From: Patescibacteria group bacterium
GTDB taxonomy: Bacteria; Patescibacteriota; Minisyncoccia; Minisyncoccales; RBG-13-36-15
DNA: 64,000 nt
NCBI GenBank assembly: GCA_022574775.1
Contig: JACZRI010000003.1
Coordinates: forward strand, 34,308-98,307
Direction: 5' to 3'
Within the stretch, counting starts at the first letter, position 1; each line of letters opens with the position of its first letter. Below are positions 3,744 through 63,830 of the stretch, piece by piece. Both the position numbers and the translations under genes were made by a program. A model generated the notes under the pieces. It did not search any database and had not been told where the DNA came from. It was given only the letters and a program-made list of their open reading frames with translations.

Positions 3744-4760
3744 GTGTTTAAGGATAAGGTATACAATAAGAAGATGAAAAAGACGAGTTTGCAAAAGTTA
3801 CTACCAGGTTTAAAGAGAAATGTTTTACTAAAAAACTATACTACTTTTAAAATTGGGGGTGCCGCCCAATTTTTTTTTGTTGCGAAAAATAAAAAAGATG
3901 TAATGAAAGCAGTCCAAACGTCCAAAAAATTAAAGCTTCCATTTTTTATTCTAGGAGAGGGAAGTAATTTGTTGATATCTGATAGGGGATTTAAAGGGTT
4001 AGTTGTCAAAATACGAAATACGAAATACGAGATACCCCGCACCAGAACAAGTTCGGTGCGGGGCAGGCAAAACATTCTGGTTTATGCAGAAGCTGGGGTT
4101 TCTTTCCCTGTTTTGGTTAAGGCAACGACTGAATTGGGATTGTCTGGATTAGAGTGGGCAGGTGGATTGCCAGGTACTCTAGGTGGAGCAATAAGGGGTA
4201 ATGCAGGAGCATTTAGAGGAGAAATAAAAGATGTTATTTTGGAAGTTGAAGCTTTGGATGAAAAAGGTAATTTAAAAACATTATCTCGAAAGCAATGTAA
4301 TTTTTCTTATCGATCCTCTATTTTTAAAAAAAATAACTGGATTGTTTTATCAACTGCGCTAAAACTGGGAAAAGGAAATAAAAAATTGATTCAGTCGATT
4401 GCAAAAAGTCATATAAGATATCGAGAAGAAAAACATCCACTTGAATATCCTAATGCCGGCAGTATTTTTAAAAACTGTGACCTCAAAAAAATTCCAAAAA
4501 GACTAAGAGCCAGTTTTAATAAAGTTGTAAAGACAGATCCATTTCCATTAATACCTTCGGCCCACCTTATTTCAGAAGCTGGATTGAAAGGATTAAGAGT
4601 TGGCCAGGCAGAAGTTTCAACCAAGCACCCAAATTATATTGTTAATCTGGGTAATACTACAGCAAAAGATGTAATAAAATTAATAAATTTAGTAAAGAAA
4701 GAAGTAAAAGATAAATTTGGAATAGTATTAGAAGAGGAAATAAAACTTGTAGGGTTTTAA
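3744..4760 (+). CDS. murB: UDP-N-acetylenolpyruvoylglucosamine reductase MurB (alternative start at 3774); carries a 36 nt in-frame palindromic insertion at 4036-4071
   Basis: NYTTFKIGG and GEGSNLLISD FAD-binding motifs plus a MurB C-terminal domain. The PRTRTSSVRGRQ segment has no counterpart in reference MurB alignments. Confidence 0.8.
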   Translation: MFKDKVYNKKMKKTSLQKLLPGLKRNVLLKNYTTFKIGGAAQFFFVAKNKKDVMKAVQTSKKLKLPFFILGEGSNLLISDRGFKGLVVKIRNTKYEIPRTRTSSVRGRQNILVYAEAGVSFPVLVKATTELGLSGLEWAGGLPGTLGGAIRGNAGAFRGEIKDVILEVEALDEKGNLKTLSRKQCNFSYRSSIFKKNNWIVLSTALKLGKGNKKLIQSIAKSHIRYREEKHPLEYPNAGSIFKNCDLKKIPKRLRASFNKVVKTDPFPLIPSAHLISEAGLKGLRVGQAEVSTKHPNYIVNLGNTTAKDVIKLINLVKKEVKDKFGIVLEEEIKLVGF

Positions 4761-5070: not shown

Positions 5071-5081
5071 TATTTCTTTCA

Positions 5082-5114
5082 CCCCGTACCAGTTGGCGCG
5101 GGGTTTTTTTATTT
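5082..5114 (+). terminator. Rho-independent terminator
   Basis: CCCCGtaccagttggcgCGGGG hairpin followed by T9. Confidence 0.55.
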
Positions 5115-5171: not shown

Positions 5172-5606
5172 ATGAAAATTATTATTAAAACGAAAAATAT
5201 CAAATTAACAAAAAATTCACAAAAATATATTAATGACAAAATAAATTCTTTGGAAAAGTTTTCCAGAATTTTCCAACAAAACCAAAAATATTTTTTCAAA
5301 AAAACAGGAATAGTAATCCGGATAGAGATTGGAAAAGAAACCCTGCATCATAAAAAAGGAAATATTTTTTTCGTAAAATGCCAAATGAAACTTCTTGATA
5401 AAATCTTGCGAGCAGAAGTTGTTTCAAAAAATTTGCGGGAGGCAGTAAATGAAGTCAAAAATATTTTACAAAAAGAATTAAAGCAGTCTAAAGAAAAATT
5501 AACTTCCAAAAATTTAAGAAAAGCAAGAATTTTAAAAAAATCTTTCCACCTTTCTTCTCAAGCTCGCTTTTGGAGAAAAGGTAGAATAAGAGAAGAAGGA
5601 ATATGA
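5172..5606 (+). CDS. hpf: Ribosome hibernation promoting factor / RaiA family protein
   Basis: The size, beta-alpha-beta-beta-beta-alpha pattern, and the (I/V)xIxxG...TLH motif are typical of HPF/YfiA. Confidence 0.55.
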   Translation: MKIIIKTKNIKLTKNSQKYINDKINSLEKFSRIFQQNQKYFFKKTGIVIRIEIGKETLHHKKGNIFFVKCQMKLLDKILRAEVVSKNLREAVNEVKNILQKELKQSKEKLTSKNLRKARILKKSFHLSSQARFWRKGRIREEGI

Positions 5607-6145
5607 TTCCATCAAAATTTTTCTTTACCAAAGGAGTTGGGATAGCGAAAGAAAAACTGAGTTCTTTTGAGTTAGCTTTAAGAGACGCTGATATTGAGCA
5701 GTATAATTTAGTTTCTGTTTCCAGCATTTTACCACCCGGCTGTAAAAAAATTTCAAGAGACAAGGGAATATCTATGTTAAAACCAGGCGAGATTGTGTTT
5801 TGTATTATGGCTAGAAATGAAACGAATGAACCCAATAGATTGTTAGGAGCTGCAGTTGGTTTTGCGCTACCTACTGGAGATAAAAATTATGGTTATCTTT
5901 CTGAACATCATTCTTTTGGCGAGACAGAGGGGAAAGCAGGAGATTATGCCGAAGACTTAGCAGCTTCTATGTTAGCTTCTACTCTTGGAATTAAATTTAA
6001 TCCTGATGATGCCTGGGATACTAGAAAGCAAGCCTTTCGGTTAGGCGGAAAGATAGTCTATACTTCTAATGTTACCCAAACTGCCAAAGCTAACAAAAAT
6101 GGCCTGTGGACTTCAGTCTTAGCGGCAGTCATTTTTATTCCCTAA
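5603..6145 (+). CDS. pdaD: Pyruvoyl-dependent arginine decarboxylase
   Basis: MIPSKFFFTKGVG..FELALRDA..SVSSILPPGC closely matches the PdaD N-terminus, including the serinolysis site. Confidence 0.8.
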   Translation: MIPSKFFFTKGVGIAKEKLSSFELALRDADIEQYNLVSVSSILPPGCKKISRDKGISMLKPGEIVFCIMARNETNEPNRLLGAAVGFALPTGDKNYGYLSEHHSFGETEGKAGDYAEDLAASMLASTLGIKFNPDDAWDTRKQAFRLGGKIVYTSNVTQTAKANKNGLWTSVLAAVIFIP

Positions 6146-6168
6146 GGCATTTGGACCATTTTTTTGCA

Positions 6169-7317
6169 ATGAACAATAAACTTTCAAAAAAAGAAAAACA
6201 TCTTGCCAAACTTGTTTCTGAATACGCAAAACTGAACCTAAAAGAGTATAAAAAAGTAAGGAATATTACTCAAAAATACAAGACAAAAAAAGTTGAGACC
6301 ATTGATGTTAATTCCAAAAGTGTTTCTGAACTTTTATCTGCGATGGCAAAAACAGGTTTTCAGGGCAGGAAGCTTGGTGAAGTAGTTGATGTTTGGGAAG
6401 AGATGATTAAGGACAAGAATATAACTATCATAATGGGGTATACGGGTTCTTTAAGCACAACAGGTCAGTGGAAGATAATAAATTGGCTGATAGAAAATAG
6501 ATATATAGATGTTTTGGTTTCGACAGGAGCCAACATCTCTGAAGAGATTGTAGAGGGTATGGGGTATCATTACTGGCAAGGAAGCCAGAATGCTGATGAT
6601 GCTAAGTTATTAGATAGCGATATTAACAGGTATTATGATATTTTTGGGGACGATGTAGAGTATCTGGACATGATAAACTTGATAGCTAAATTTATCATGA
6701 CCTGTAAAGAAGGCTATAATTATTCTACAATGGAATTCCTGCGCGACTTTGGCCTGTGGTTGAATAAGAGAAAAGTAGACAGTATTGTAGGGGTTGCTGC
6801 CAAAGCCAAAGTTCCTGTTTTCAGTCCTGCTTTGGTAGATTCAGCGTATGGAGATGCTGTATTGATAGCAAAGAGTAAGAACTTCGATTTAATACTTGAT
6901 CAGGCAAAAGATTATGTAGAATTCATGGGTCTGGCAAGAAAGGTAAAGGATATCGGAGTAATTTACATAGGCGGTGGCGTACCAAAAGACTTCATTCAAC
7001 TTTTAGCGGTATCTGCGCCTCTTGAATATTATGATAAAAAAATACCTGACAGATCTGGAGGCGTTTTTCGTCCTGCAACCAACGAATGGTTTTATCCTCA
7101 CAAGTATGCTATACAAATAACTACTGACAGTCCGCAATGGGGAGGCCTTTCGGGATGCACTTTCGAAGAAGCGAGCAGCTGGGGCAAAGAAGAACCAGGT
7201 GGCAAGAATGTAACGTGCTACTGCGATGCCACCATAGCCTTGCCGATTGTCACACATGCTTTGGCAGAAAGAATCAAAACAAAAAGAAAAGGTACTGATT
7301 TTTCCGACCTTTTTTAA
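6169..7317 (+). CDS. Deoxyhypusine synthase-like protein (DHS family)
   Basis: The GSLSTTG...LVSTGANISEE Rossmann-like DHS signature is present, and the gene sits between pdaD and speB. Confidence 0.65.
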   Translation: MNNKLSKKEKHLAKLVSEYAKLNLKEYKKVRNITQKYKTKKVETIDVNSKSVSELLSAMAKTGFQGRKLGEVVDVWEEMIKDKNITIIMGYTGSLSTTGQWKIINWLIENRYIDVLVSTGANISEEIVEGMGYHYWQGSQNADDAKLLDSDINRYYDIFGDDVEYLDMINLIAKFIMTCKEGYNYSTMEFLRDFGLWLNKRKVDSIVGVAAKAKVPVFSPALVDSAYGDAVLIAKSKNFDLILDQAKDYVEFMGLARKVKDIGVIYIGGGVPKDFIQLLAVSAPLEYYDKKIPDRSGGVFRPATNEWFYPHKYAIQITTDSPQWGGLSGCTFEEASSWGKEEPGGKNVTCYCDATIALPIVTHALAERIKTKRKGTDFSDLF

Positions 7318-7326
7318 AGAATAAAA

Positions 7327-8190
7327 ATGAAGAAACCTTCTTATCCAACTTTGGAGCCTTTCAATTTTCTTGGCCTAGAAAAGCAAGATTATGAAAAAGC
7401 AAAAGTAATAATTTTCCCAGTTCCTTATAGCTCAACCACGTATTGGAAATCAGAAACAAAAGATGGGCCAAGAGCAATCATTGAGGCTTCCAGGCACTTG
7501 GAGCTTTACGATTTAGAGCTAAAAAAAGATCCCTCCAGAATAGGGATTTTTACGTTGGAGCAATTAGAACCATCAAAAGATTCTCCTAAAGCGACCATAG
7601 CCAGAATAAAAAAAATAATAAAAGATCTGTTAAAAGATGGGAAATTCCCCCTGATGATAGGGGGGGAACATTCAATTACTAACGGAGCTATTCAAGCTTT
7701 CAAAGAAAAATTTTTAAACTTTTCTGTTTTGCACATTGATGCCCATACAGATTCGAGAGATGAATTTGAAGGAACAAAATGGCATCATGCTTGTGTAATG
7801 AGAAGGGCAAGGGATTTTAAGATTCCAGTAACGCAAGTTGGAATTCGAAGTATTTCAGAAGAAGAAGCAGAATATTTTAAAAAGAAAAAGATTAAGAGTA
7901 TTTTTTATTCCCCAAATCTTCCGCTTAATAAAATCATTGCCACTTTGAAAAAAAATGTATATATAACCTTTGATTTAGACGTTTTTGATCCTTCTATTAT
8001 GCCCTCTGTGGGAACCCCAGAGCCTGGAGGTCTTGGCTGGTATGAAACCTTAGATCTTATTAGAGCAATTGCGAAAAAAAGAAAAATAATCGGAGCAGAC
8101 GTAGTAGAACTTTGCCCAATTCCAGGAATTTCTGCCCCTGATTTTTTAGCAGCAAAACTGGTGTATAAAATCATAAGCTATATAGCGTAA
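7327..8190 (+). CDS. speB: Agmatinase (arginase/ureohydrolase family)
   Basis: GGEHSIT, DAHTDSRD and DLDVFDPS..PGG manganese-binding motifs. Confidence 0.8.
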   Translation: MKKPSYPTLEPFNFLGLEKQDYEKAKVIIFPVPYSSTTYWKSETKDGPRAIIEASRHLELYDLELKKDPSRIGIFTLEQLEPSKDSPKATIARIKKIIKDLLKDGKFPLMIGGEHSITNGAIQAFKEKFLNFSVLHIDAHTDSRDEFEGTKWHHACVMRRARDFKIPVTQVGIRSISEEEAEYFKKKKIKSIFYSPNLPLNKIIATLKKNVYITFDLDVFDPSIMPSVGTPEPGGLGWYETLDLIRAIAKKRKIIGADVVELCPIPGISAPDFLAAKLVYKIISYIA

Positions 8191-17616: not shown

Positions 17617-19227
17617 ATGAATAAAGAAATAACACTTTTTGCAGAAACTACTTTCAGGAATTTGAGAAAGAAGTTTGGAATTAAGCTTGATGATAGAAGG
17701 AGACATGTTTATATCATAGGAAAAACCGGGATGGGAAAAACCGTGTTGCTTGAAAATATGATAATTCAAGATATTCAGCAGGGCAAAGGAGTAGGTTTTG
17801 TTGATCCTCATGGGGAGGCTGCGGAAGGATTGCTTGATTTCATTCCCTCCAACAGGATTAATGATGTAATTTATTTTAACCCTGCTGATCTGGAACATCC
17901 CATCGCTTTTAATATTATGGAGAAAGTGGATGTTGAGCATCGTCATTTGGTCGCAGGAGGATTAATGGGAGTTTTTAAAAAAATCTGGCCAGACGTCTGG
18001 TCAGCAAGAATGGAATACATTTTGAATAATTGTATTTTGGCTCTTTTGGAATACCCGGACTCAACCTTACTCGGAGTAAACCGGATGTTGGCCGATCCTG
18101 ATTATCGAAAAAAAGTCGTGGAAAAAGTTACAGATCCTATGGTAAAATCATTCTGGCTTCAAGAGTTTGCTAGGTATACTCAACGCTACGAGGTGGAGGC
18201 AACAGCTGCTATCCAGAATAAAGTCGGACAATTCATTTCAGCTCCTTTAATCAGAAATATTATTGGCCAGGTCAAGTCCACACTTGATATGAGGGATATT
18301 ATGGATAAAGGCAAAATTTTAATTTTGAATTTATCCAAAGGAAGAATAGGAGAAGATAATTCTCGGTTATTGGGGGCTCTTTTAATAACTAAATTGCAGT
18401 TAGCTGCTATGTCCCGCGTAGATGTACCAGAGGATGAGCGAAGAGATTTTTTTCTTTATGTTGATGAATTTCAGAATTACGCAACAGAGTCTTTCGTTAA
18501 TATTTTATCTGAAGCAAGGAAATATAGATTGTCCTTGATTTTGGCTCATCAGTACATTACCCAGATGGAGGAAACAGTAAGAGACGCAGTATTTGGAAAC
18601 GTGGGAACTATTATCGCTTTTCGGGTGGGAGCAGAAGATGCAGAATTTTTAGAAAAAGAATTTGTTCCTGAATTTACTGCCCAGGATCTAGTTAATTTAG
18701 CCAAATATAATATTTATTTAAAGCTGATGATTGATGGAATAGCAGGCTCTCCATTTTCTGCAGGGACTTTTCCTCCTTTTCCAAAGCTAGAGCATTCAAA
18801 TAGAGAGAAAATTATCAAGGCATCTAGGGAGAGATATGGGACGAAAAAAGAATTGGTAGAAGAGAAAATTATCAGATGGACAGGTATTGTAAACTCACTT
18901 CCACCCACTTCCGCCCAGACTGTTCTTTACGATGCAAAATGCTCACAATGCGGGAAACAGACAAAGGTTGTTTTTCCTCCAGATGGAGTGAGGCCTACTT
19001 ATTGTAAATCCTGCCGGAATAAAATGAAAAAAAGTGAGGCGCAAAGAGAGAGTGGAGAAGCTTCTATTTCTTTTAAGGAAGCCTTGAAAAAAGAACCAAC
19101 CTCTTTTTCTCCCAGAAAATTAAACAGAGAACCTTTTAAGAAAAGAAAAAACGTTAATGTAGAGGAATTAAAGAAAACATTAGATGAAATCTTAGAAAAA
19201 AGAGAAAATAAAGATTCCCAACAATGA
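17617..19227 (+). CDS. FtsK-HerA superfamily ATPase, TraD/VirD4 (type IV coupling protein)-like, with a C-terminal Cys4 zinc ribbon
   Basis: Walker A YIIGKTGMGKT within H-x-YIIG...VDPHGE context, Walker B FFLYVDEFQNY, and CSQCG...CKSCRNK. Confidence 0.55.
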   Translation: MNKEITLFAETTFRNLRKKFGIKLDDRRRHVYIIGKTGMGKTVLLENMIIQDIQQGKGVGFVDPHGEAAEGLLDFIPSNRINDVIYFNPADLEHPIAFNIMEKVDVEHRHLVAGGLMGVFKKIWPDVWSARMEYILNNCILALLEYPDSTLLGVNRMLADPDYRKKVVEKVTDPMVKSFWLQEFARYTQRYEVEATAAIQNKVGQFISAPLIRNIIGQVKSTLDMRDIMDKGKILILNLSKGRIGEDNSRLLGALLITKLQLAAMSRVDVPEDERRDFFLYVDEFQNYATESFVNILSEARKYRLSLILAHQYITQMEETVRDAVFGNVGTIIAFRVGAEDAEFLEKEFVPEFTAQDLVNLAKYNIYLKLMIDGIAGSPFSAGTFPPFPKLEHSNREKIIKASRERYGTKKELVEEKIIRWTGIVNSLPPTSAQTVLYDAKCSQCGKQTKVVFPPDGVRPTYCKSCRNKMKKSEAQRESGEASISFKEALKKEPTSFSPRKLNREPFKKRKNVNVEELKKTLDEILEKRENKDSQQ

Positions 19228-21598: not shown

Positions 21599-21742
21599 TA
21601 TTAGCCCCAGAACCAATCCTCACTTCGTTCGAATGGTACGGGGCAAGCATTAATTATGGTTTAACTTGTTTGGAGTTTCCTATGCCCGCCCCGTATTTCC
21701 CGACTTGTCGGGATAGTACCGGGGTATATTAGTGTCGCGTTT

Positions 21743-25477: not shown

Positions 25478-25853
25478 GATTTTTAATGTCCTAGCAAGTC
25501 TATAAGCCGAATTCTGTATTTGTGTGATCATTTGTCTGGGCCCCGATTTACATCTGAGCTCAAGCGAACTACTCTTTCACAAAAATTCTAGATAAACCCA
25601 GAATTTCTGATTTGTTCTTGCACCCAATAAGGATTTAGCCGTTTCACTCCTACATTGCTGCAGGACTACTCCGACAATAGTCGGAGTGCTCAACCTTTCG
25701 GTTTCGCGCGTCTCTGTTCGCACCTCTAGTCTTACGACCGACGGCCGTTAACCGCTATATTTTTTGACCCCGATATCTATTCGGAGAAATGGTGTTCGGA
25801 CTTTCCTCCCCCTGTCATTGCTGGCAAGGAGTAATCACCCAACTTACTAGGAC
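25478..25853 (-). ncRNA. rnpB: RNase P RNA, bacterial type A
   Basis: The minus strand reads GGGGGAGGAAAGUCCGAACACC (P4 5' strand), GGAGUGAAACGGCU and ACAGAAUUCGGCUUAUAG (P4 3' strand). P1 pairs UCCUAGUAAGU with ACUUGCUAGGA, and the region is GC-enriched. Confidence 0.8.
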
Positions 25854-34330: not shown

Positions 34331-34446
34331 CTGTGGATATAATTTTAGTACGGGGTAAATAGGACTTGGTTCGCCTGCCCCGCTGTGCCTCCCCAGTAAC
34401 CTTGAGCATAGTTCGAGAGACCGAGAGGTGTTATTTACGAATTCTA

Positions 34447-34470
34447 AAATCGCCAAGAAGGCGGTTTTTT
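34447..34470 (+). terminator. Rho-independent terminator (member of a repeated terminator module)
   Basis: CGCCaagaaGGCG hairpin followed by T6. The same roughly 50 nt module recurs at 40872-40922, and its core at 46483-46508 and 44072-44128. Confidence 0.6.
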
Positions 34471-40868: not shown

Positions 40869-40895
40869 GTCTGACCGAAACGCGTTATTTACGAA

Positions 40896-40930
40896 TTCTA
40901 AAATCACCAAGAAGGCGGTTTTCTTTTATT
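40896..40930 (+). terminator. Rho-independent terminator (repeat of the 34416-34468 module)
   Basis: CACCaagaaGGCGG hairpin followed by TTTTCTTTT. The upstream 30 nt are also shared with the 34416 copy. Confidence 0.55.
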
Positions 40931-40934
40931 AAAG

Positions 40935-41340
40935 AAAAGAGGGGAGCACGCCTGACTGACGCAACTCCCCTTGTTCGTTCGAAGACTCTGAGCACCTATT
41001 AAGAGAGGGCTATTTCACTGGCGACTTCACGGAAGCTGGCGCCCCCGCTTCATAGTCTCGCCCCTATTCTACACATTCTAAGAGGTGTTCCCTCCAACGG
41101 TATACTCCGCGAGTCAGAACCACTGGGAGGTTGAACCCAGCTCTCCCATCCATGTGGAGATTATCCCAACCAACGACTAGTCCTTTTTCCGAACGAACAT
41201 AGTTTTTTTATAACAATCCAAATAACGTGTCAATAGGGCAACAGAAAATCGTCAACCTGTCCGCCTGTGGAAGAAAAGCATGCCTCACACCGTCGAGTCA
41301 AACTCGACTGGTGCGGGGGTCCACGGCTACCAGTCGCTTA
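40935..41340. ncRNA. Candidate structured ncRNA in a GC-rich (about 50%) non-coding segment; identity unresolved
   Basis: 400 nt with no credible ORF, marked GC enrichment as seen for rnpB, and multiple GC hairpins (GGGGAGC...GCTCTCC, CTGGG-aggttgaa-CCCAG, GGTGCGGGGGTCCACGG). Confidence 0.3.
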
Positions 41341-43324: not shown

Positions 43325-44035
43325 ATGGAGCATTTTTTCTTTTTTGGAGTTGCTTTTATTGCTGCAGTAATTGGGACTATAGCGGGCTTTGGTACAGCTA
43401 CTATTTTAACCCCGTTTAGTTCTTTGGTGATTGATATTAAGGTGGCCATTGTTTTGGTAGCCTTTTTTCATTTATTTAGGAATGTATCTACAATTTTTCT
43501 TTTTAAGAAAATAAATTGGGGGATTTTTTTAAAATTTGGTATCCCCAGTATTGGGGCTTCATTCCTTGGCGCCAAACTCATAACCACATTAGATACAGAA
43601 ACCGTAAAAGTTATTTTTGGTTTATTTTTGATCACTTTTGTTCTTTATTCCTTTACGAAAAAAGTCATTCAACTAAGACCAGTCAATTATGTTGCGTTTT
43701 CTGGCGGATTGAGTTCAGGATTTTTAGCGGGGCTTATTGGTACAGGCGGAGCCATTCGTTCACTTTTTTTGAATGCTTTTGGTTTACCCAAAAAAGTTTA
43801 TATAGCCACTTCCGCGATGATCGCCATTGTTATTGATTTAACTAGAATACCTGTGTATTTTGCAGGTGGGATTATTTTTGATAAAATTTATCTCTATTAT
43901 ATCCCAGCTTTAATTCTAATAGCTTTTTTCGGAGTTATAATCGGGAAAAAGATAGTCAAAAAAATACCAACCGAAACTTTTAGAAGAGTGGTGTTAATAG
44001 CCTTACTTTTGATTGGGCTAAAGTTAATATTTTGA
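43325..44035 (+). CDS. TauE/SafE (DUF81) family sulfite/anion exporter
   Basis: Duplicated 4-TM repeats, each with a G-rich motif (GTIAGFGTAT and GLIGTGGAI). Confidence 0.7.
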   Translation: MEHFFFFGVAFIAAVIGTIAGFGTATILTPFSSLVIDIKVAIVLVAFFHLFRNVSTIFLFKKINWGIFLKFGIPSIGASFLGAKLITTLDTETVKVIFGLFLITFVLYSFTKKVIQLRPVNYVAFSGGLSSGFLAGLIGTGGAIRSLFLNAFGLPKKVYIATSAMIAIVIDLTRIPVYFAGGIIFDKIYLYYIPALILIAFFGVIIGKKIVKKIPTETFRRVVLIALLLIGLKLIF

Positions 44036-44071
44036 ATTTAAATAAACCAAATATAAACTCATCTAATAAAA

Positions 44072-44128
44072 AAATCGCCAAGCCCTAAACCAGAACAAGT
44101 ACGGTTCAGGGTAAAAAGGCGGTTTTTT
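44072..44128 (+). terminator. Rho-independent terminator whose loop carries a nested 33 nt palindromic insertion (44083-44115)
   Basis: AAAATCGCCAAG[CCCTAAACC-AGAACAAGTAC-GGTTCAGGG-TAAA]AAGGCGGTTTTTTT. The flanks equal the intact terminator module found at 34447 and 46483. Confidence 0.55.
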
Positions 44129-44272
44129 TAGTAGAATTGTTTGATGAAAAAGAAGACTTTGATGGCCAGCTTGAAAAATTTCTTTATTTAGAACCTCTCT
44201 TTTTTTAATTTATAATTAGATAGAGTAGATAAAAAAAACTTCAACTAAGCCTGTGGATTTAAGTCTGGTATT

Positions 44273-45160
44273 TTAATTTTTGAGTTGGTTAATAATTTTG
44301 AATGTATCAGATTGGCGATTACTGGAATAAAACAAGATAATGACGACAGGCTCTTTGTTTATATTAAATAACGATGCTGATGTCTGTCTGGCTTCTGGCA
44401 GGTAGCCAGTTTTTCCGCCAATAAATTCAGGAAGAGCATAAAAATTATTTACATTTTGGAACTTGAGTAATCTTCCTGTTGGATCCGGAAGCCAAAAGTT
44501 ATTATTTTTGGTAATGCTTAAAATTTCTGCATGATTCTCGTGAATATAAGTTAAGAGTTTTGCTATGTCGGTGGCAGTAGAGCGGTTTGCGGGATTTAAT
44601 CCGTGGGGGTCAAAAAAAACAGTATTAGCCATATCGAGCTCTTTTGCTTTTTGATTCATCAGATCCAAAAAATTTCCCTTTCTTAAAAAATAAGTTAAAG
44701 ATTCAGCAGCATCATTTGTTGATTGAATAAGACTGGCTTGGAGAAGATTTTTTGCGCTAACATTTAAGCCTAGGAAAAGGGATGGGCTATATCCTAAAGG
44801 CTCAAGCATTTTTTCTGTTAAAGTTATTGTTTGGTCAGTATCAATATTTTCAAAAGCAACTACAGCGCTCATGAGCTTGGTAATAGAAGCAATGGGAAAG
44901 GGTTGATTAGCGTTTTTCTCTAAAACCACTGAATTATTAGAAAGGTTTACTGCCAAATATGATGCAGCTGTAATTTCTTGTTGTAAACGTAAATTTAAAA
45001 TCAGTGCTTGAAGATGTTGAATTTTTTGTTTGAGGACTTGTATTTGCTGGATTAATTTCATCCTTTCTGTCTGGTCGAAGGCTTTAGCTGTTTTAGAAGC
45101 AAAGGGTGAAAAAGCTAAAAGTAATGTACAAAATAGAAGACAAAAGATTTTGTATTGCAT
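44273..45160 (-). CDS. D-alanyl-D-alanine carboxypeptidase (peptidase S11, PBP5-like)
   Basis: Signal peptide, and SITK (SxxK), SxN and KTG-like motifs. Confidence 0.7.
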   Translation of the reverse strand: MQYKIFCLLFCTLLLAFSPFASKTAKAFDQTERMKLIQQIQVLKQKIQHLQALILNLRLQQEITAASYLAVNLSNNSVVLEKNANQPFPIASITKLMSAVVAFENIDTDQTITLTEKMLEPLGYSPSLFLGLNVSAKNLLQASLIQSTNDAAESLTYFLRKGNFLDLMNQKAKELDMANTVFFDPHGLNPANRSTATDIAKLLTYIHENHAEILSITKNNNFWLPDPTGRLLKFQNVNNFYALPEFIGGKTGYLPEARQTSASLFNINKEPVVIILFYSSNRQSDTFKIINQLKN

Positions 45161-46482: not shown

Positions 46483-46508
46483 AAAATCGCCAAGAAGGCG
46501 GTTTTTTG
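46483..46508 (+). terminator. Rho-independent terminator (same module as 34447)
   Basis: AAAATCGCCAAGAAGGCGGTTTTTTG. Confidence 0.6.
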
Positions 46509-52274: not shown

Positions 52275-52877
52275 ATGAAAATGAGAACAAAACACAGAAT
52301 CTTTATTGCTATTAATTTCCTTCCAGAAATAAAAAAGGAGTTCCTTTTTTATCAGAAGAAATGGGAAGATTTACCGGTTCGATGGACGAAAAAAGATAAT
52401 TTACACTTAACTTTGGTTTTTATCGGCTCTGTGGAGGATGAAGGTTTACTAAAAATCCTTGAAACTGCAAGGGAAGTAGCGAAAAATTCCCAACCTTTTT
52501 CAATACATTTTCAAAGAATTCTTCTTGGTCCGCCTGACAGAACTCCTCGAATGTTTTGGGTAGAAGGGGAAAAGAATCAAGATTTGAGTGTCTTAAAAAA
52601 TAATTTAGAAAAAGAATTGTCAGAGTTAAAATTAAGACGAGAGCTTCGAGAATTCAAAGTCCATATTACCATAGGAAGAATTAAAATATTAGAATGGCGC
52701 CAGCTTCAAAAGAAACCAAGAATTGAAGAAAAAATCTCCTTAACGGTATCGGTAAATTCTATTGAAGTTATGGAGAGTAAATTAAAACCAACTGGGCCGG
52801 ACTATTTTGTTTTAGAGTCAATCAAGCTTGGACCCCTTTCTTTTTCAAAAAAGAAAGGTGATCCCCCGGTACTATAA
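52275..52877 (+). CDS. thpR: RNA 2',3'-cyclic phosphodiesterase (ThpR/LigT, 2H family)
   Basis: Two H-x-T/S-x motifs (HLTLVF and HITIGR). Confidence 0.65.
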   Translation: MKMRTKHRIFIAINFLPEIKKEFLFYQKKWEDLPVRWTKKDNLHLTLVFIGSVEDEGLLKILETAREVAKNSQPFSIHFQRILLGPPDRTPRMFWVEGEKNQDLSVLKNNLEKELSELKLRRELREFKVHITIGRIKILEWRQLQKKPRIEEKISLTVSVNSIEVMESKLKPTGPDYFVLESIKLGPLSFSKKKGDPPVL

Positions 52878-53091
52878 ATCCTTTCGGATTTGAGTACGGG
52901 GCTAGAATACGAAATACATACGTTATTTTACAAGATGCTCGCCCCGTACCATGCGAACGCAGTGAGAATTGGTACTGGGGCAACCTCCAAAGAAAAAATA
53001 TAATGTTATCGCTCGCTCGGCGCCGGTAAGCCGTAGCTCGCGATATTTGTTCGAGACCTTTTTAAAAAAAGGTTCTCGAGCTCTCAAAATT

Positions 53092-60731: not shown

Positions 60732-61054
60732 AAAATTTAACAAAGAATCTTGACTGGAAAAAATTAAATGGTTTAATTCCGGTAATTGCCCAGGATTTTA
60801 AAACAGAAAAAGTTTTAATGCTCGGTTTTATGAATAGAGAAGCTCTAAAGAAAACTTTAAAAGAAGGAAAAATTACTTATTTCAGTCGGGTAAGAAAAAA
60901 ACTCTGGACAAAAGGAGAAACCTCTGGGCATTTCTTGCAAACTAAAGCAATTTGGGTTGATTGCGATAATGATACTCTTTTAATTAGGGTGAAAGCACAG
61001 GGTAATGTTTGTCACACCGGTCATAAAAGCTGTTTTTATAGGAAAATTCTATGA
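60728..61054 (+). CDS. hisI: Phosphoribosyl-AMP cyclohydrolase HisI (no fused HisE)
   Basis: LIPVIAQD...SRVRKKLWTKGETSGH...DCDNDTLLIRV. Confidence 0.8.
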   Translation: MKNLTKNLDWKKLNGLIPVIAQDFKTEKVLMLGFMNREALKKTLKEGKITYFSRVRKKLWTKGETSGHFLQTKAIWVDCDNDTLLIRVKAQGNVCHTGHKSCFYRKIL

Positions 61055-61935
61055 AAAAAGAAAAGAAAATAAAAATAGGAATTCCAACCAGATTTTTACT
61101 TCTACCAACTTTAACAATTTTTAGAGCTGCAGGTTACAATCTCGAAGTTGATGAGAAAACCTTTCAAGTAAAAATTGATGATCCAGAAATCGAATGTTTT
61201 CCGGGAAGAACGCGAGAAATAGCTGAAAGAGTGGGAGATGGTATTCTGGATGCTGGAATTTCAAGGAAAGATAGAGTTTTGGCAAGTGGGGTCAAAGTCC
61301 GTGAAATTTGCGACTTAGATTATAACAGAACGGAGACCTGGGAAAAGGGAAAAATTGTTTTAGTTGTGCCAAAGACCTCAAAGATTAAAACCTTGAAGGA
61401 TCTCAATGGGAAAACAATCATTACTAGATTTCCTGAAATTACGAAAAAATTTTTAAAAAGGCATAAAGTCTCAGCCAAGATTGAAACTTCTGATACTCCA
61501 AACGAGTTTCAGATAGGCAAATTAGTTGATGCAGGAGTCGAATTTACTTTGACCGGCAGCACTTTGGCGGCTAACAATCTAAAACCTCTGGCAGTTTTAA
61601 TGGAAACTTCGGCAATTTTTATTGCTAATGAAAAATCCCTTAAAGATAAATGGAAAAGAGAAAAGATAGAAAACTTAGCGATTTTACTTAAGGGAGCAAG
61701 GTTGGCTCAAGAAATGGCAGGATTGATGCTTCATGCCTCAAATAAAATGATGGAAGAAGTTCTTGAGATTTTACCAGCCCTGAAAAAACCAACCGTAACT
61801 CAATTAAGAGGTGAAAACTGGTTTGATGTTCTTACCGTTGCAAATAAAAAAGAGATAAGAAAAATTATTCCAAGACTTAAAAAAATTGGCTGTACCGACA
61901 TCATTGAATTTCCTTTAAATAAAGTTGTAATCTAA
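61051..61935 (+). CDS. hisG: ATP phosphoribosyltransferase HisG (long form), copy 1
   Basis: KIGIPTRF, DAGISRKD and the LTGSTL PRPP-binding region, plus a C-terminal regulatory domain. Confidence 0.7.
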   Translation: MKKEKKIKIGIPTRFLLLPTLTIFRAAGYNLEVDEKTFQVKIDDPEIECFPGRTREIAERVGDGILDAGISRKDRVLASGVKVREICDLDYNRTETWEKGKIVLVVPKTSKIKTLKDLNGKTIITRFPEITKKFLKRHKVSAKIETSDTPNEFQIGKLVDAGVEFTLTGSTLAANNLKPLAVLMETSAIFIANEKSLKDKWKREKIENLAILLKGARLAQEMAGLMLHASNKMMEEVLEILPALKKPTVTQLRGENWFDVLTVANKKEIRKIIPRLKKIGCTDIIEFPLNKVVI

Positions 61936-61941
61936 ATATAT

Positions 61942-62817
61942 ATGGCTTTGAAACTAAAACTTGGAATTCCCAAAGGATCGCTTCAAAATTATACTTTAAA
62001 AATATTTAAGGAAGCTGGATTTAATATTGATATCCCTGAAAGGGGGTATTTTTTAAAAATTGATGATCCGGAAATTGACTGCTTTTTATTGAGACCCCAG
62101 GAAATCCCGAAATATATTGAAAAAAGAAAATTAGATTTAGGCATCAGCGGCGATGATTGGATTTTAGAGTCAAGGGCAAAAGTAATTGAGGTTTGTGACT
62201 TGAAATACGCGAAACAAGAAATGAAAAAGGTCAAATGGGTTTTAGCAGTTCCTGAAAATTCAAAAATAAAATCTATAAAAGATCTTGAAGGAAAAATCAT
62301 TTCCACGGAAATAGTTAATTTGGTAAAAGACTATTTAAGAAAAAATAAAGTTAAGGCCAAGGTTGAATTCTCCTGGGGGGCGGCCGAGATAAAACCTCCA
62401 AGGTTTGCTGACGCCATTGTTGATATCACCGAAACCGGGGCTTCTCTCAAAGCTCATAATTTAAAAATTCTAGATACAATTTTGGTAAGTTCAACAAAAC
62501 TAATCACGAATAAGGAAGCTTGGAAAAATAAATGGAAAATAAAAAAAATAAAAGATCTGGCTCTTTTACTTCAAGGGGCTGTTCGAGGCGAAGGGGCAGT
62601 AAGTTTAATAATGCATGTTCCCGGGGAGAAATTAAACAGAATTTTAAAAGTTTTACCAAAATTAAAATCGCCGACTGTCAGGAAAACCGCTGGTCAAAAT
62701 TGGTATGATGTTATAATTTCTTGCAAAGAGGAAGAGGCTAGAGAATTAATTCCAAAGTTAAAAAGAATGGGCGGTCAAGGGATTGTTGAATTCCCAATAA
62801 TTAAACTGGTGCCGTAA
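61942..62817 (+). CDS. hisG: ATP phosphoribosyltransferase HisG paralog, copy 2 (tandem duplicate)
   Basis: Same architecture as copy 1: LGIPKGSL, LGISGDDW and TETGASL. Confidence 0.7.
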   Translation: MALKLKLGIPKGSLQNYTLKIFKEAGFNIDIPERGYFLKIDDPEIDCFLLRPQEIPKYIEKRKLDLGISGDDWILESRAKVIEVCDLKYAKQEMKKVKWVLAVPENSKIKSIKDLEGKIISTEIVNLVKDYLRKNKVKAKVEFSWGAAEIKPPRFADAIVDITETGASLKAHNLKILDTILVSSTKLITNKEAWKNKWKIKKIKDLALLLQGAVRGEGAVSLIMHVPGEKLNRILKVLPKLKSPTVRKTAGQNWYDVIISCKEEEARELIPKLKRMGGQGIVEFPIIKLVP

Positions 62818-63675: not shown

Positions 63676-63790
63676 GATCCTTCAACAAAGTTCAGGGTCG
63701 CCCTGAGTTAAATCGAAGGGCGATAAACTCAGGGTAACCCTGAGTCCTTCGGTCCTGAATTCAGGGTTGAAGGATAAAGTCGAAGGATTT
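63676..63790. repeat. Cluster of degenerate family B palindromic repeats (CCTTCg/CGAAGG and CTCAGGG/CCCTGAG arms)
   Basis: Several hairpins, for example CCTTCaacaaaGTTCAGGG-tcg-CCCTGAGttaaatCGAAGG and ACTCAGGG-taa-CCCTGAGT. Confidence 0.55.
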
Positions 63791-63791
63791 A

Positions 63792-63830
63792 AGCCCTGCC
63801 TTGTAAATAGCGATGGCAGGGTTTTTTGTT
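63792..63830 (+). terminator. Rho-independent terminator
   Basis: CCCTGCC-loop-GGCAGGG hairpin followed by T6. Confidence 0.65.

Follow-up and report, generated by a model that had tools for sequence, protein, structure and literature searches.

A 33-nucleotide hairpin unit in a terminator loop and in murB of a Patescibacteria genome is probably a copy of a selfish palindromic mini-element

The stretch analysed here (the window) comprises 64,000 nt of a Patescibacteria group bacterium assembly (contig JACZRI010000003.1, positions 34,308 to 98,307). In it, a TauE/SafE-family gene and a D-Ala-D-Ala carboxypeptidase-like gene converge on an intergenic region in which a terminator module is interrupted by a hairpin unit of 33 nt (Table 1). 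The module itself, AAAATCGCCAAGAAGGCGGTTTTTT, occurs intact at two other places in the window, as the initial annotation had stated (one begins at 34446 rather than the 34447 given there), and matched none of 100 shuffled sequences; its fold (-10.5 kcal/mol) is a stem of 9 bp closed by a 5-nt loop, with a T run after it. Downstream of the TauE/SafE-family gene the module is broken between AAG and AAGGCGG and its halves flank the unit, just as had been proposed: a 33-base unit, made up of a 29-nt hairpin and a 4-nt tail, has inserted into the loop of a transcription terminator. Module and insert together are predicted to fold as one nested hairpin (-25 kcal/mol, z = -6.3). By the criterion for intrinsic terminators, the T run belongs to the host module and the 33-nt unit has none; a simple terminator scan did not call the composite because its loop exceeds 8 nt.

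The window lies within the ENA metagenome contig ERZ27267408 k141_730483 (155.7 kb). An independent assembly 99.98% identical to the window (L002) carries the same insert, and L002 and a further assembly (L170) align to the window at 99.9% identity with no indels, the insert being present where they overlap its site. A related genome (L125) has a TauE gene 94% identical to that of the window, followed by other small hairpins and then by an intact module, AGAATCGCCAAGAAGGCGGTTTTTT (L125 10910-10934).

Table 1. Coordinates of the hairpin units, terminator modules and neighbouring genes in the window.
Feature	Position	Strand	Sequence	Evidence or remark
A-type 33-nt unit in frame in murB	4035..4067	-		56.8 bits; empty site in P0002/L121
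Short hairpin, same stem type, then T run	5078..5103	+	CCCCGTACC AGT T GGCGCGGGG TTTTTTT	19.9 bits
Related hairpin, same outer stem type, CAAG tail, 20-nt loop	21606..21647	-		21.4 bits
Related hairpin, other loop, same kind of stem and tail	21685-21724			
Intact terminator module	34446..34470	+	AAAATCGCCAAGAAGGCGGTTTTTT	Exact match; target without insert
Terminator module with 2 mismatches	40900..40924	+		Downstream of YsxC GTPase gene
Related bulged hairpin	41279..41318	+	CCTCACACC GTCGAGTCAAACTCGAC T GGTGCGGGG	16.3 bits
TauE/SafE-family gene, 3' terminator carries the insert	43325..44035	+		PF01925; orthologue comparison
Split module, 5' half	44071..44082	+	AAAATCGCCAAG	AAAATCGCC stem arm and loop AAG; reference is the intact copies
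A-type 33-nt unit	44083..44115	-		Covariance model 52.2 bits on -, 16.6 bits on +; fold
Insert read on the + strand	44083-44091, 44092-44102, 44103-44111, 44112-44115	+	CCCTAAACC, AGAACAAGTAC, GGTTCAGGG, TAAA	
Insert read on the - strand	44083..44115	-	TTTA + CCCTGAACC GTACTTGTTCT GGTTTAGGG	With G.T wobble
Split module, 3' half	44116..44129	+	AAGGCGG + T7	Loop AA, GGCGG stem arm, T7 run
D-Ala-D-Ala carboxypeptidase-like gene	44273..45160	-		
Intact terminator module	46483..46507	+	AAAATCGCCAAGAAGGCGGTTTTTT	Exact match
Further related hairpin	52864-52905			Scores given with the 52938-52979 hairpin
Related hairpin, opposite orientation	52938..52979	+	CTCG CCCCGTACC ...19 nt... T GGTACTGGG	20.8 / 9.6 bits, together with the hairpin at 52864-52905

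The window holds a second copy of the same A-type unit inside murB (CCCCGCACC AGAACAAGTTC GGTGCGGGG CAGG), where it encodes the peptide PRTRTSSVRGR and where the open reading frame (ORF), as read from its sequence, is intact. The closest MurB homologue (P0002, 87% identical) lacks exactly this peptide and the 33 nt behind it: its DNA runs from ACGAGATA directly into CGAAAC, where the window has ACGAGATA, the 33 nt and then CAAAAC. Of 119 MurB homologues that cover the site, 108 have nothing at this position and 11 carry some insert, each a multiple of 3 nt, and solved MurB structures are empty there too, the Listeria one (3tx1) aligning with a gap at this segment, which lies between conserved blocks. 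The 33-nt unit in murB is an in-frame insertion. Among the filled homologues, P0008 (63% identical) has an A copy with another stem variant at the same site, and P0004 has there the same outer stem and CAGG tail around a 20-nt loop, 42 nt in total. A heptamer run, (AAATACG)x3, lies directly beside the murB copy at window 4012-4032; it is native, since it encodes the conserved segment KIRNTKY.

The murB and terminator copies differ at three paired stem positions. The initial annotation had read these differences as preserving the pairing, which holds for two of them, both truly compensatory double changes (C-G to T-A and C-G to A-T), and fails for the third, an A.C mismatch on the + strand of the terminator copy that leaves 8/9 Watson-Crick pairs. 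On the complementary strand the same position is a G.U/G.T wobble.

We scanned the GTDB representatives (one genome per species) with the pattern CCN5CCAGAACAAGTNCGGN5GG, in which the loop is constant together with the two outermost and the two innermost stem pairs, and the other five stem positions may be any base and need not pair. At least 117 loci matched, with at least 121 pattern matches, of which at least 102 are hairpins with at least 7/9 Watson-Crick pairs. By our arithmetic, at least 4 of the 5 free pairs would form by chance in about 1.6% of cases, and about 17 chance pattern matches are expected in the 596 Gb scanned. The initial annotation had made its reading depend on further genomic copies, and more than 100 exist.

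Counts by host, tail and orientation, here and below, are among the matches listed. Hairpins occur in Saccharibacteria, Parcubacteria, Microgenomates, Doudna-, Uhr-, Roizman-, Nealson-, Berkel-, Falkow- and Gottesmanbacteria, in several Omnitrophota, and in one metagenome-assembled genome (MAG) each of Elusimicrobia (three copies), Ratteibacteria and Woesearchaeota; the MAG of Tantalella remota (Omnitrophota) has six hairpin copies among 7 pattern matches. Nearly all of the hairpin matches come from MAGs of the Patescibacteria or candidate phyla radiation (CPR), Omnitrophota and Elusimicrobia. The 19 non-hairpin matches belong to organisms that are cultured or rich in G+C (Streptomyces, Hymenobacter and Prevotella, for example), and every match in a cultured organism is a chance match of this non-hairpin kind. 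Labels such as 'Gammaproteobacteria' or 'Planctomycetia' on binchicken third-party annotation (TPA) MAGs were not taken at face value; one doubtfully labelled MAG, a single contig of 804 kb with 37-39% G+C in three 8-kb stretches, has at least 3 copies. The consensus is CCCYGNACC AGAACAAGTWC GGTNCRGGG plus a tail, which is CAAG in 26 copies, CAGG in 23 and TAAA in 23.

The family is apparently widespread and undescribed. A literature search for the element sequence, its encoded peptides and palindromic elements in CPR found no description, within incomplete literature coverage; Rfam at the gathering score returned only RNase P RNA and three tRNAs from the window, and at a permissive E-value only noise-level microRNA matches to the element region. 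Classification as a CRISPR repeat was ruled out, the copies being single and dispersed, with 4-nt spacing in the sole tandem case (L094). In that Saccharibacteria MAG (L094 160-345), two head-to-tail doublets of the A unit (unit-TAAA-unit-TAAA) alternate with a repeated 41-nt spacer as a tandemly duplicated block of about 107 nt. The Woesearchaeota copy (L075, PCVE01000014.1), on a contig assigned by binning to a DPANN archaeon, lies in frame in an uncharacterised ORF of 254 codons and could reflect either cross-domain spread or a mis-binned CPR contig.

Chance resemblance, or an artefact of assembly, is effectively refuted. It could be argued from the window, which has only two A-type copies, and from the fact that nearly all others come from MAGs. 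Against this, a covariance model built from copies in other genomes finds the murB copy at an E-value of about 1e-12 and the terminator copy at about 2e-11, which rules out chance resemblance; independent assemblies from three samples agree, and copies from many unrelated studies carry compensatory stem variants.

The stems covary. In 75 distinct copies, 95.9% of the pair cells are standard pairs on the complementary strand, and five stem pairs have changes on both sides (81 cells). None of 500 shuffles reached the observed covariation score, and sliding the partner columns abolishes the signal; this set was pre-selected for at least 7 Watson-Crick pairs, and the unselected hairpin counts (at least 102/121) agree with it. 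The initial annotation's suggestion of a selected secondary structure is supported accordingly by covariation beyond chance, with the refinement that the complementary strand appears to be the folded one. On the AGAACAAGTWC strand, the non-Watson-Crick pairs are 48 C.A/A.C against 7 G.T, and these same 48 mismatches are G.T/G.U wobbles on the complementary strand. The imbalance recurs in sense-coding (21:2), antisense-coding (7:0) and noncoding copies (21:5), the A.C mismatch of the window's terminator copy fits it, and the covariance model favours the complementary strand by 30-35 bits. Ordinary deamination bias would give the opposite asymmetry, so a folding constraint on the complementary strand is the most likely source. 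Read on that strand, the hairpin is preceded by a 4-nt tag, CTTG, CCTG or TTTA (YYTR).

Many copies lie inside genes: 51 of the 104 listed fall within a stop-free frame of at least 150 codons, and overall about 40-50% are intragenic, with 41 in the sense orientation (mRNA AGAACAAGUWC) and 10 antisense. Copies are read in each of the three frames, as PRTRTSSVRGR, PHQNKFGAGQ or PAPEQVRYGA, and the host genes include SecA, RecR, an RluA-like synthase, sigma-70, DinB, a ferredoxin, a MinD/Mrp ATPase and MurB. Of the sense copies, 28/41 end in CAAG or CAGG, and TAAA, which includes a stop codon in one frame, ends 1/41 sense copies versus 19/53 noncoding ones. The noncoding copies, many of which adjoin tRNA genes or terminators, are evenly oriented with respect to the strand bearing the majority of genes (26:27) and to GC skew (25:28), which rules out replication-linked orientation for them. 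Since noncoding copies show no orientation bias, the sense bias in genes is best explained by selection on the encoded peptide or mRNA and not by the insertion mechanism.

These distributions bear on the idea that the unit is a functional cis-acting RNA, for instance strengthening terminators, stabilising 3' ends or acting in processing near tRNAs, and thus selected in transcripts and not selfish DNA. The insert raises the predicted stability of its host terminator hairpin from -10.5 to -25 kcal/mol, many noncoding copies stand beside tRNA genes or terminators, and G.U-type wobbles are a classic RNA signature. We nevertheless regard this function as quite improbable: some 40-50% of copies lie in coding sequence, in all three frames of unrelated essential genes; the mRNA of sense copies carries the strand with C.A mismatches and not the wobble strand; the noncoding copies have no preferred orientation to neighbouring genes; and Rfam has no match to the unit.

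The boundaries of the unit are unambiguous to within one base. At four loci (L083, L113, L023, L010), the sequence without the 33 nt is a perfect tandem array of heptamers, back in register. Neither the left nor the right flank is enriched over permutations for matches to the tail, and the empty sites concur in lacking a target-site duplication; a small excess of 4-nt flank/tail matches stems from tandem units. Flank preferences are weak, with A at -2 in 62/104 listed copies, a purine at -1, a pyrimidine after the tail, and G after the tail in 1/74 listed copies with one of the three main tails, and from them it follows that an A-R^Y step is common to the two junctions and the empty site. Target choice guided by the tag was considered and rejected, as copies ending in CAAG, CAGG or TAAA have much the same flanks once composite repeat families are set aside. 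Heptamer runs adjoin many A copies (L083, L113, L010, L023, L014, L017, L020, L087, L046), the heptamers outside murB being AAATCCG, CAAAAGT, GGGAATA and GAGACAA.

[quoted passage not shown] It is very improbable given these junctions and stems: MITEs have terminal inverted repeats, a target-site duplication and 70-300 bp, whereas this unit has 33 nt and makes no duplication, its arms covary in place of a fixed protein-binding sequence, and it combines strong wobble strand asymmetry with an asymmetric bulge and a one-sided tail.

The initial annotation also proposed mobility into pre-existing hairpin loops. This stands for the terminator module, for which there are intact paralogues, the module of the TauE orthologue and other hairpins at the same point. 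When metagenomes were scanned for the module interrupted by any insert of 20-50 nt, several cases lay at exactly AAG^AAG: a different hairpin of 35 nt, CCCGCCCAAGTTTCTTTGAAATTTAGGTGGGCAAG, in five contigs whose upstream flanks differ; one (L157) with the window's outer stem and TAAA tail and another loop; and two further hairpins (L162, L129). A Patescibacteria MAG (L042) has an A-type composite 93% identical to the window's over 71 nt. As a preference for hairpin loops in general the proposal does not hold. Noncoding copies lie at the predicted apex of a flanking hairpin (stems of at least 4 bp) in 24% of cases versus 22% for random noncoding positions, which rules out general apex targeting, and about half of the copies or somewhat fewer are intragenic; outer stems do abut more often than expected, but a small number of composite repeat families, each confined to one genome, account for this. 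Two explanations offer themselves for the module: a hot spot at the AAG^AAG loop, or recombination between copies of the module that spreads whole composites. For the window and L042, whose places are non-syntenic, the second is favoured because the two composites share derived features: both have the A.C mismatch, the GTAC variant of the loop and a TAAA tail.

Recombination might be extended to the family as a whole, new sites being rare and spread proceeding mostly by homologous recombination, gene conversion or natural transformation, possibly biased in uptake, so that filled alleles and entire composites would be copied from genome to related genome and from one paralogous module to another. 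Besides the L042 pair, this would suit a murB site that is empty in the nearest relative yet occupied in lineages of only 63% identity, a second composite type on the same module at five different loci, and a TauE gene found in unrelated neighbourhoods at 94% identity. We consider it unlikely as a general account: insertion is base-precise, with neither flanking homology nor duplication, copy density is far under that of known uptake sequences, and a mechanism of de novo insertion is needed because more than 100 copies sit in unrelated, non-homologous contexts. The string ACAAGTWCGGT, spanning loop and stem at window 44092-44105 and 4044-4057, resembles the cores of the DNA uptake signals of Pasteurellaceae, AAGTGCGGT and ACAAGCGGT; the likeness is probably coincidence, since the copy density is far too low for an uptake sequence.

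The TauE gene and the module show further variation of their own. The gene is 88-94% identical in L125, L127 and L128, where the neighbouring genes are wholly unlike those of the window, which suggests that it may move as a cassette with its terminator. After the TauE orthologues, at L125 10740-10860 and L127 4425-4470, lie arrays in which mini-hairpins with this type of stem and a loop of just 4 nt (CCCAGTACC ATTC GGTACGGGG TAGG) take turns with hairpins of the GAACCGGCTGGTTC type; they are absent from that place in the window, so the TauE intergenic region differs by several hairpin-sized indels between close relatives. Two window copies of the module share a 5' extension, GTTATTTACGAATTCT (34396-34470, 40886-40924), AACCTTGAGCNNNGTTCGAGAGACCGAG lies upstream of the module both after tRNA-Gln in the window and after TauE in L125 (10866-10934), and TTGATAGAAT follows the T run of the module in many contigs. 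The module belongs to larger shared sequences, which could represent either a unit that is dispersed or a gene for a small RNA with the module at its end.

Taken together, we think that the 33 nt at 44083-44115 are probably a copy of a non-coding, non-autonomous and selfish palindromic mini-element that works like a repetitive extragenic palindrome (REP) or a Rickettsia palindromic element (RPE) and is moved in trans. Its unit consists of a 9-bp G+C-rich stem, a one-base bulge, an inner stem of 3-4 bp with a tetraloop, and a 4-nt tail (CAAG, CAGG or TAAA), gained and lost as a precise block without target-site duplication. An enzyme acting in trans would recognise the hairpin folded on one strand, the complement of the window's + strand, with the YYTR tag before it, and the intermediate would most likely be single-stranded DNA. 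The enzyme may be of a kind that acts on folded single strands, such as the Y1 HUH enzymes of REP-associated tyrosine transposases (RAYTs) and of IS200/IS605; this is suggested by analogy, since the unit comes and goes precisely and leaves no duplication, its bulged hairpin stands beside a tetranucleotide, wobbles are tolerated on one strand, and the junction steps are similar. The reading frame is never shifted because the unit is 33 nt long, and with a CAAG or CAGG tail it contains no stop in any frame, so that copies survive inside essential genes, where they would form 11-residue surface loops. Intergenic copies persist as well, among them the one in the apical loop of the window's terminator, where it makes a longer nested hairpin.

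Several observations weigh against this interpretation. Recombination would explain equally well the murB site filled in distant lineages and the non-syntenic composite of L042. A metagenome collection scan gave no match to the exact empty murB junction, and three identical assemblies show no filled/empty polymorphism within the population. Loop conservation across copies is by construction, the loop being fixed in the search pattern, and copies per genome are few, the window having 2 of A type and about 6 relatives in 64 kb. The tag, YYTR, is not the GTAG or CGTC of REPs. A single hairpin with weak target specificity, and noncoding copies without the replication-strand bias of IS200/IS605, sit poorly with a single-strand enzyme, and no mobilising enzyme was identified: there is no transposase or recombinase Pfam family in genes over about 2,557-64,000 (1-2,556 lacks Pfam cover), none among window ORFs of at least 100 aa, and no ORF with an HUH-Y1 motif in the six-frame ORFs of about 1 Mb of loci by a crude regular expression.

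Searches for a partner or carrier were likewise negative. No RAYT (Y1 HUH) gene flanked by repeats was seen among the window's Pfam genes or, by the same crude expression, in the loci, and an all-against-all comparison of 2,240 locus ORFs found no family recurring beside the element. Viral contigs gave one non-hairpin chance match to the A-type pattern and, with a stem-plus-tail pattern, ordinary phage hairpins only, with no A-type loops; no phage carrier is evident.

REPs consist of a tag, GTAG or CGTC, and a 6-13-bp stem. Their stems vary in complementary fashion and include G.T pairs, their complex loops can pair with themselves, they form inverted dimers, and now and then a unit lies inside a gene; REP dimers are known as REPINs (Di Nocera et al. 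2013, PMC3733652). The element is like them in its unit length within 20-40 nt and in the combination of an unpaired tetranucleotide tag with a G+C-rich stem of 6-13 bp (PMC3733652). It also shares subfamilies with alternative complementary stem residues, frequent G.T pairs, variable and sometimes self-complementary loops, inverted neighbours and a frequent position downstream of genes, with some units in ORFs. The differences lie in the tag, GTAG occurring in 1 listed copy only (L090); in the intragenic share, some 40-50% against a small minority in REPs; in a length that is a multiple of three; in a few copies per genome against tens to thousands; and in the same sequence being found across CPR, Omnitrophota and Elusimicrobia MAGs, with no RAYT gene seen in the window or the loci. 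We therefore treat the element as working like a REP or RPE and do not file it as a REP, since its tag fails, about half of its copies are intragenic, its length is frame-neutral, its copy number is low and its phyla lie outside those surveys.

RPEs are confined to Rickettsia, and those of the RPE-1 type measure about 100-150 bp. The two systems are alike as selfish palindromes that lie in frame in functional, often essential genes of reduced genomes and add a peptide to them; for the element, murB, SecA, RecR, sigma-70 and other ORFs appear from their sequences to stay intact. The element differs in its 33 nt, its tag and sequence, and its hosts in unrelated phyla (CPR and other MAGs). RPEs are inserted in frame within ORFs likely to encode functional proteins and number among the intragenic units of the REP catalogue, and RPE-4 and RPE-6 are CGTC-tagged REPs (PMC3733652).

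Like IS200/IS605, the element makes no target-site duplication and is gained and lost precisely; the two also have in common a bulged hairpin on one strand with a short conserved oligonucleotide at its foot, and a short step shared by both junctions and the target (A-R^Y here). IS200/IS605 elements have two different subterminal hairpins, a strict 4-5-nt target 5' of the insertion and a replication-strand bias; the element, in contrast, has a single hairpin, a weak target preference and no strand bias of its noncoding copies (25:28). A last parallel is with the optional G+C-rich clusters and 'byp' elements of yeast mitochondria, which are also mobile G+C-rich hairpins of about 30-55 nt in an A+T-rich genome, some of them in protein-coding genes. 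Some of those elements are bypassed in translation or cause frameshifting; unlike these organellar sequences, the element is frame-neutral and stop-free, so that bypass is not needed.

The window also contains several related hairpins (Table 1), all of the form ACC-A-GA...TC-GGT, that is, an unpaired A followed by a small inner palindrome. The one at 21606-21647 reads CCCAGAACC AATCCTCACTTCGTTCGAAT GGTACGGGG CAAG on the + strand. The short one with a T run resembles a terminator and lies in the gap between the end of murB (4760) and the next ORF (5172). Hairpins with other loops adjoin A copies in other loci too, usually inverted. We tentatively suggest that these sequences may form an undescribed superfamily of frame-neutral mini-palindromes, with CCC...GGG stems, a YARR tail and exchangeable inner loops, in Patescibacteria/CPR, Omnitrophota, Elusimicrobia and perhaps DPANN. 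Such a superfamily might be moved by a widely distributed putative enzyme acting on strand-specific folded single-stranded DNA, repeatedly adding 7-14-residue loops to essential proteins encoded by the smallest genomes known and nesting in other hairpins.

Elsewhere in the window, small palindromes based on TCAGGG/CCCTGA (TTCAGGGTCGCCCTGA, CTCAGGGTAACCCTGAG, CCTGAATTCAGG) are densely nested at 63680-63790 and enclosed by CCTTCAAC...GTTGAAGG, with a terminator-like hairpin after them at about 63794-63825; the nest may be another hairpin repeat family. Other features are a cluster of pyruvoyl arginine decarboxylase, deoxyhypusine synthase-like and arginase genes (5603-8190), a TrwB-type coupling-protein-like gene adjoining a DUF8128 gene (17617-19227), RNase P RNA class A on the - strand (25487-25850, 125 bits) and two tandem HisG paralogues (61051-62817).

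The view has widened from two copies in one window to a large family in essential genes. The CPR/Patescibacteria have among the smallest and most streamlined bacterial genomes, and yet their essential genes and terminators are colonised by a 33-nt hairpin that is probably selfish. How palindromic repeats move is unsettled even for classical REPs, and the family offers a clean natural dataset on this movement: its boundaries are precise, orthologous sites exist in empty and filled states, the stems covary and the active strand is marked. Its inserts can mislead gene callers, structure predictors and terminator predictors. They also explain lineage-specific 11-residue loops in CPR proteins, the family adding 11 amino acids to many essential proteins of these ultra-small bacteria.

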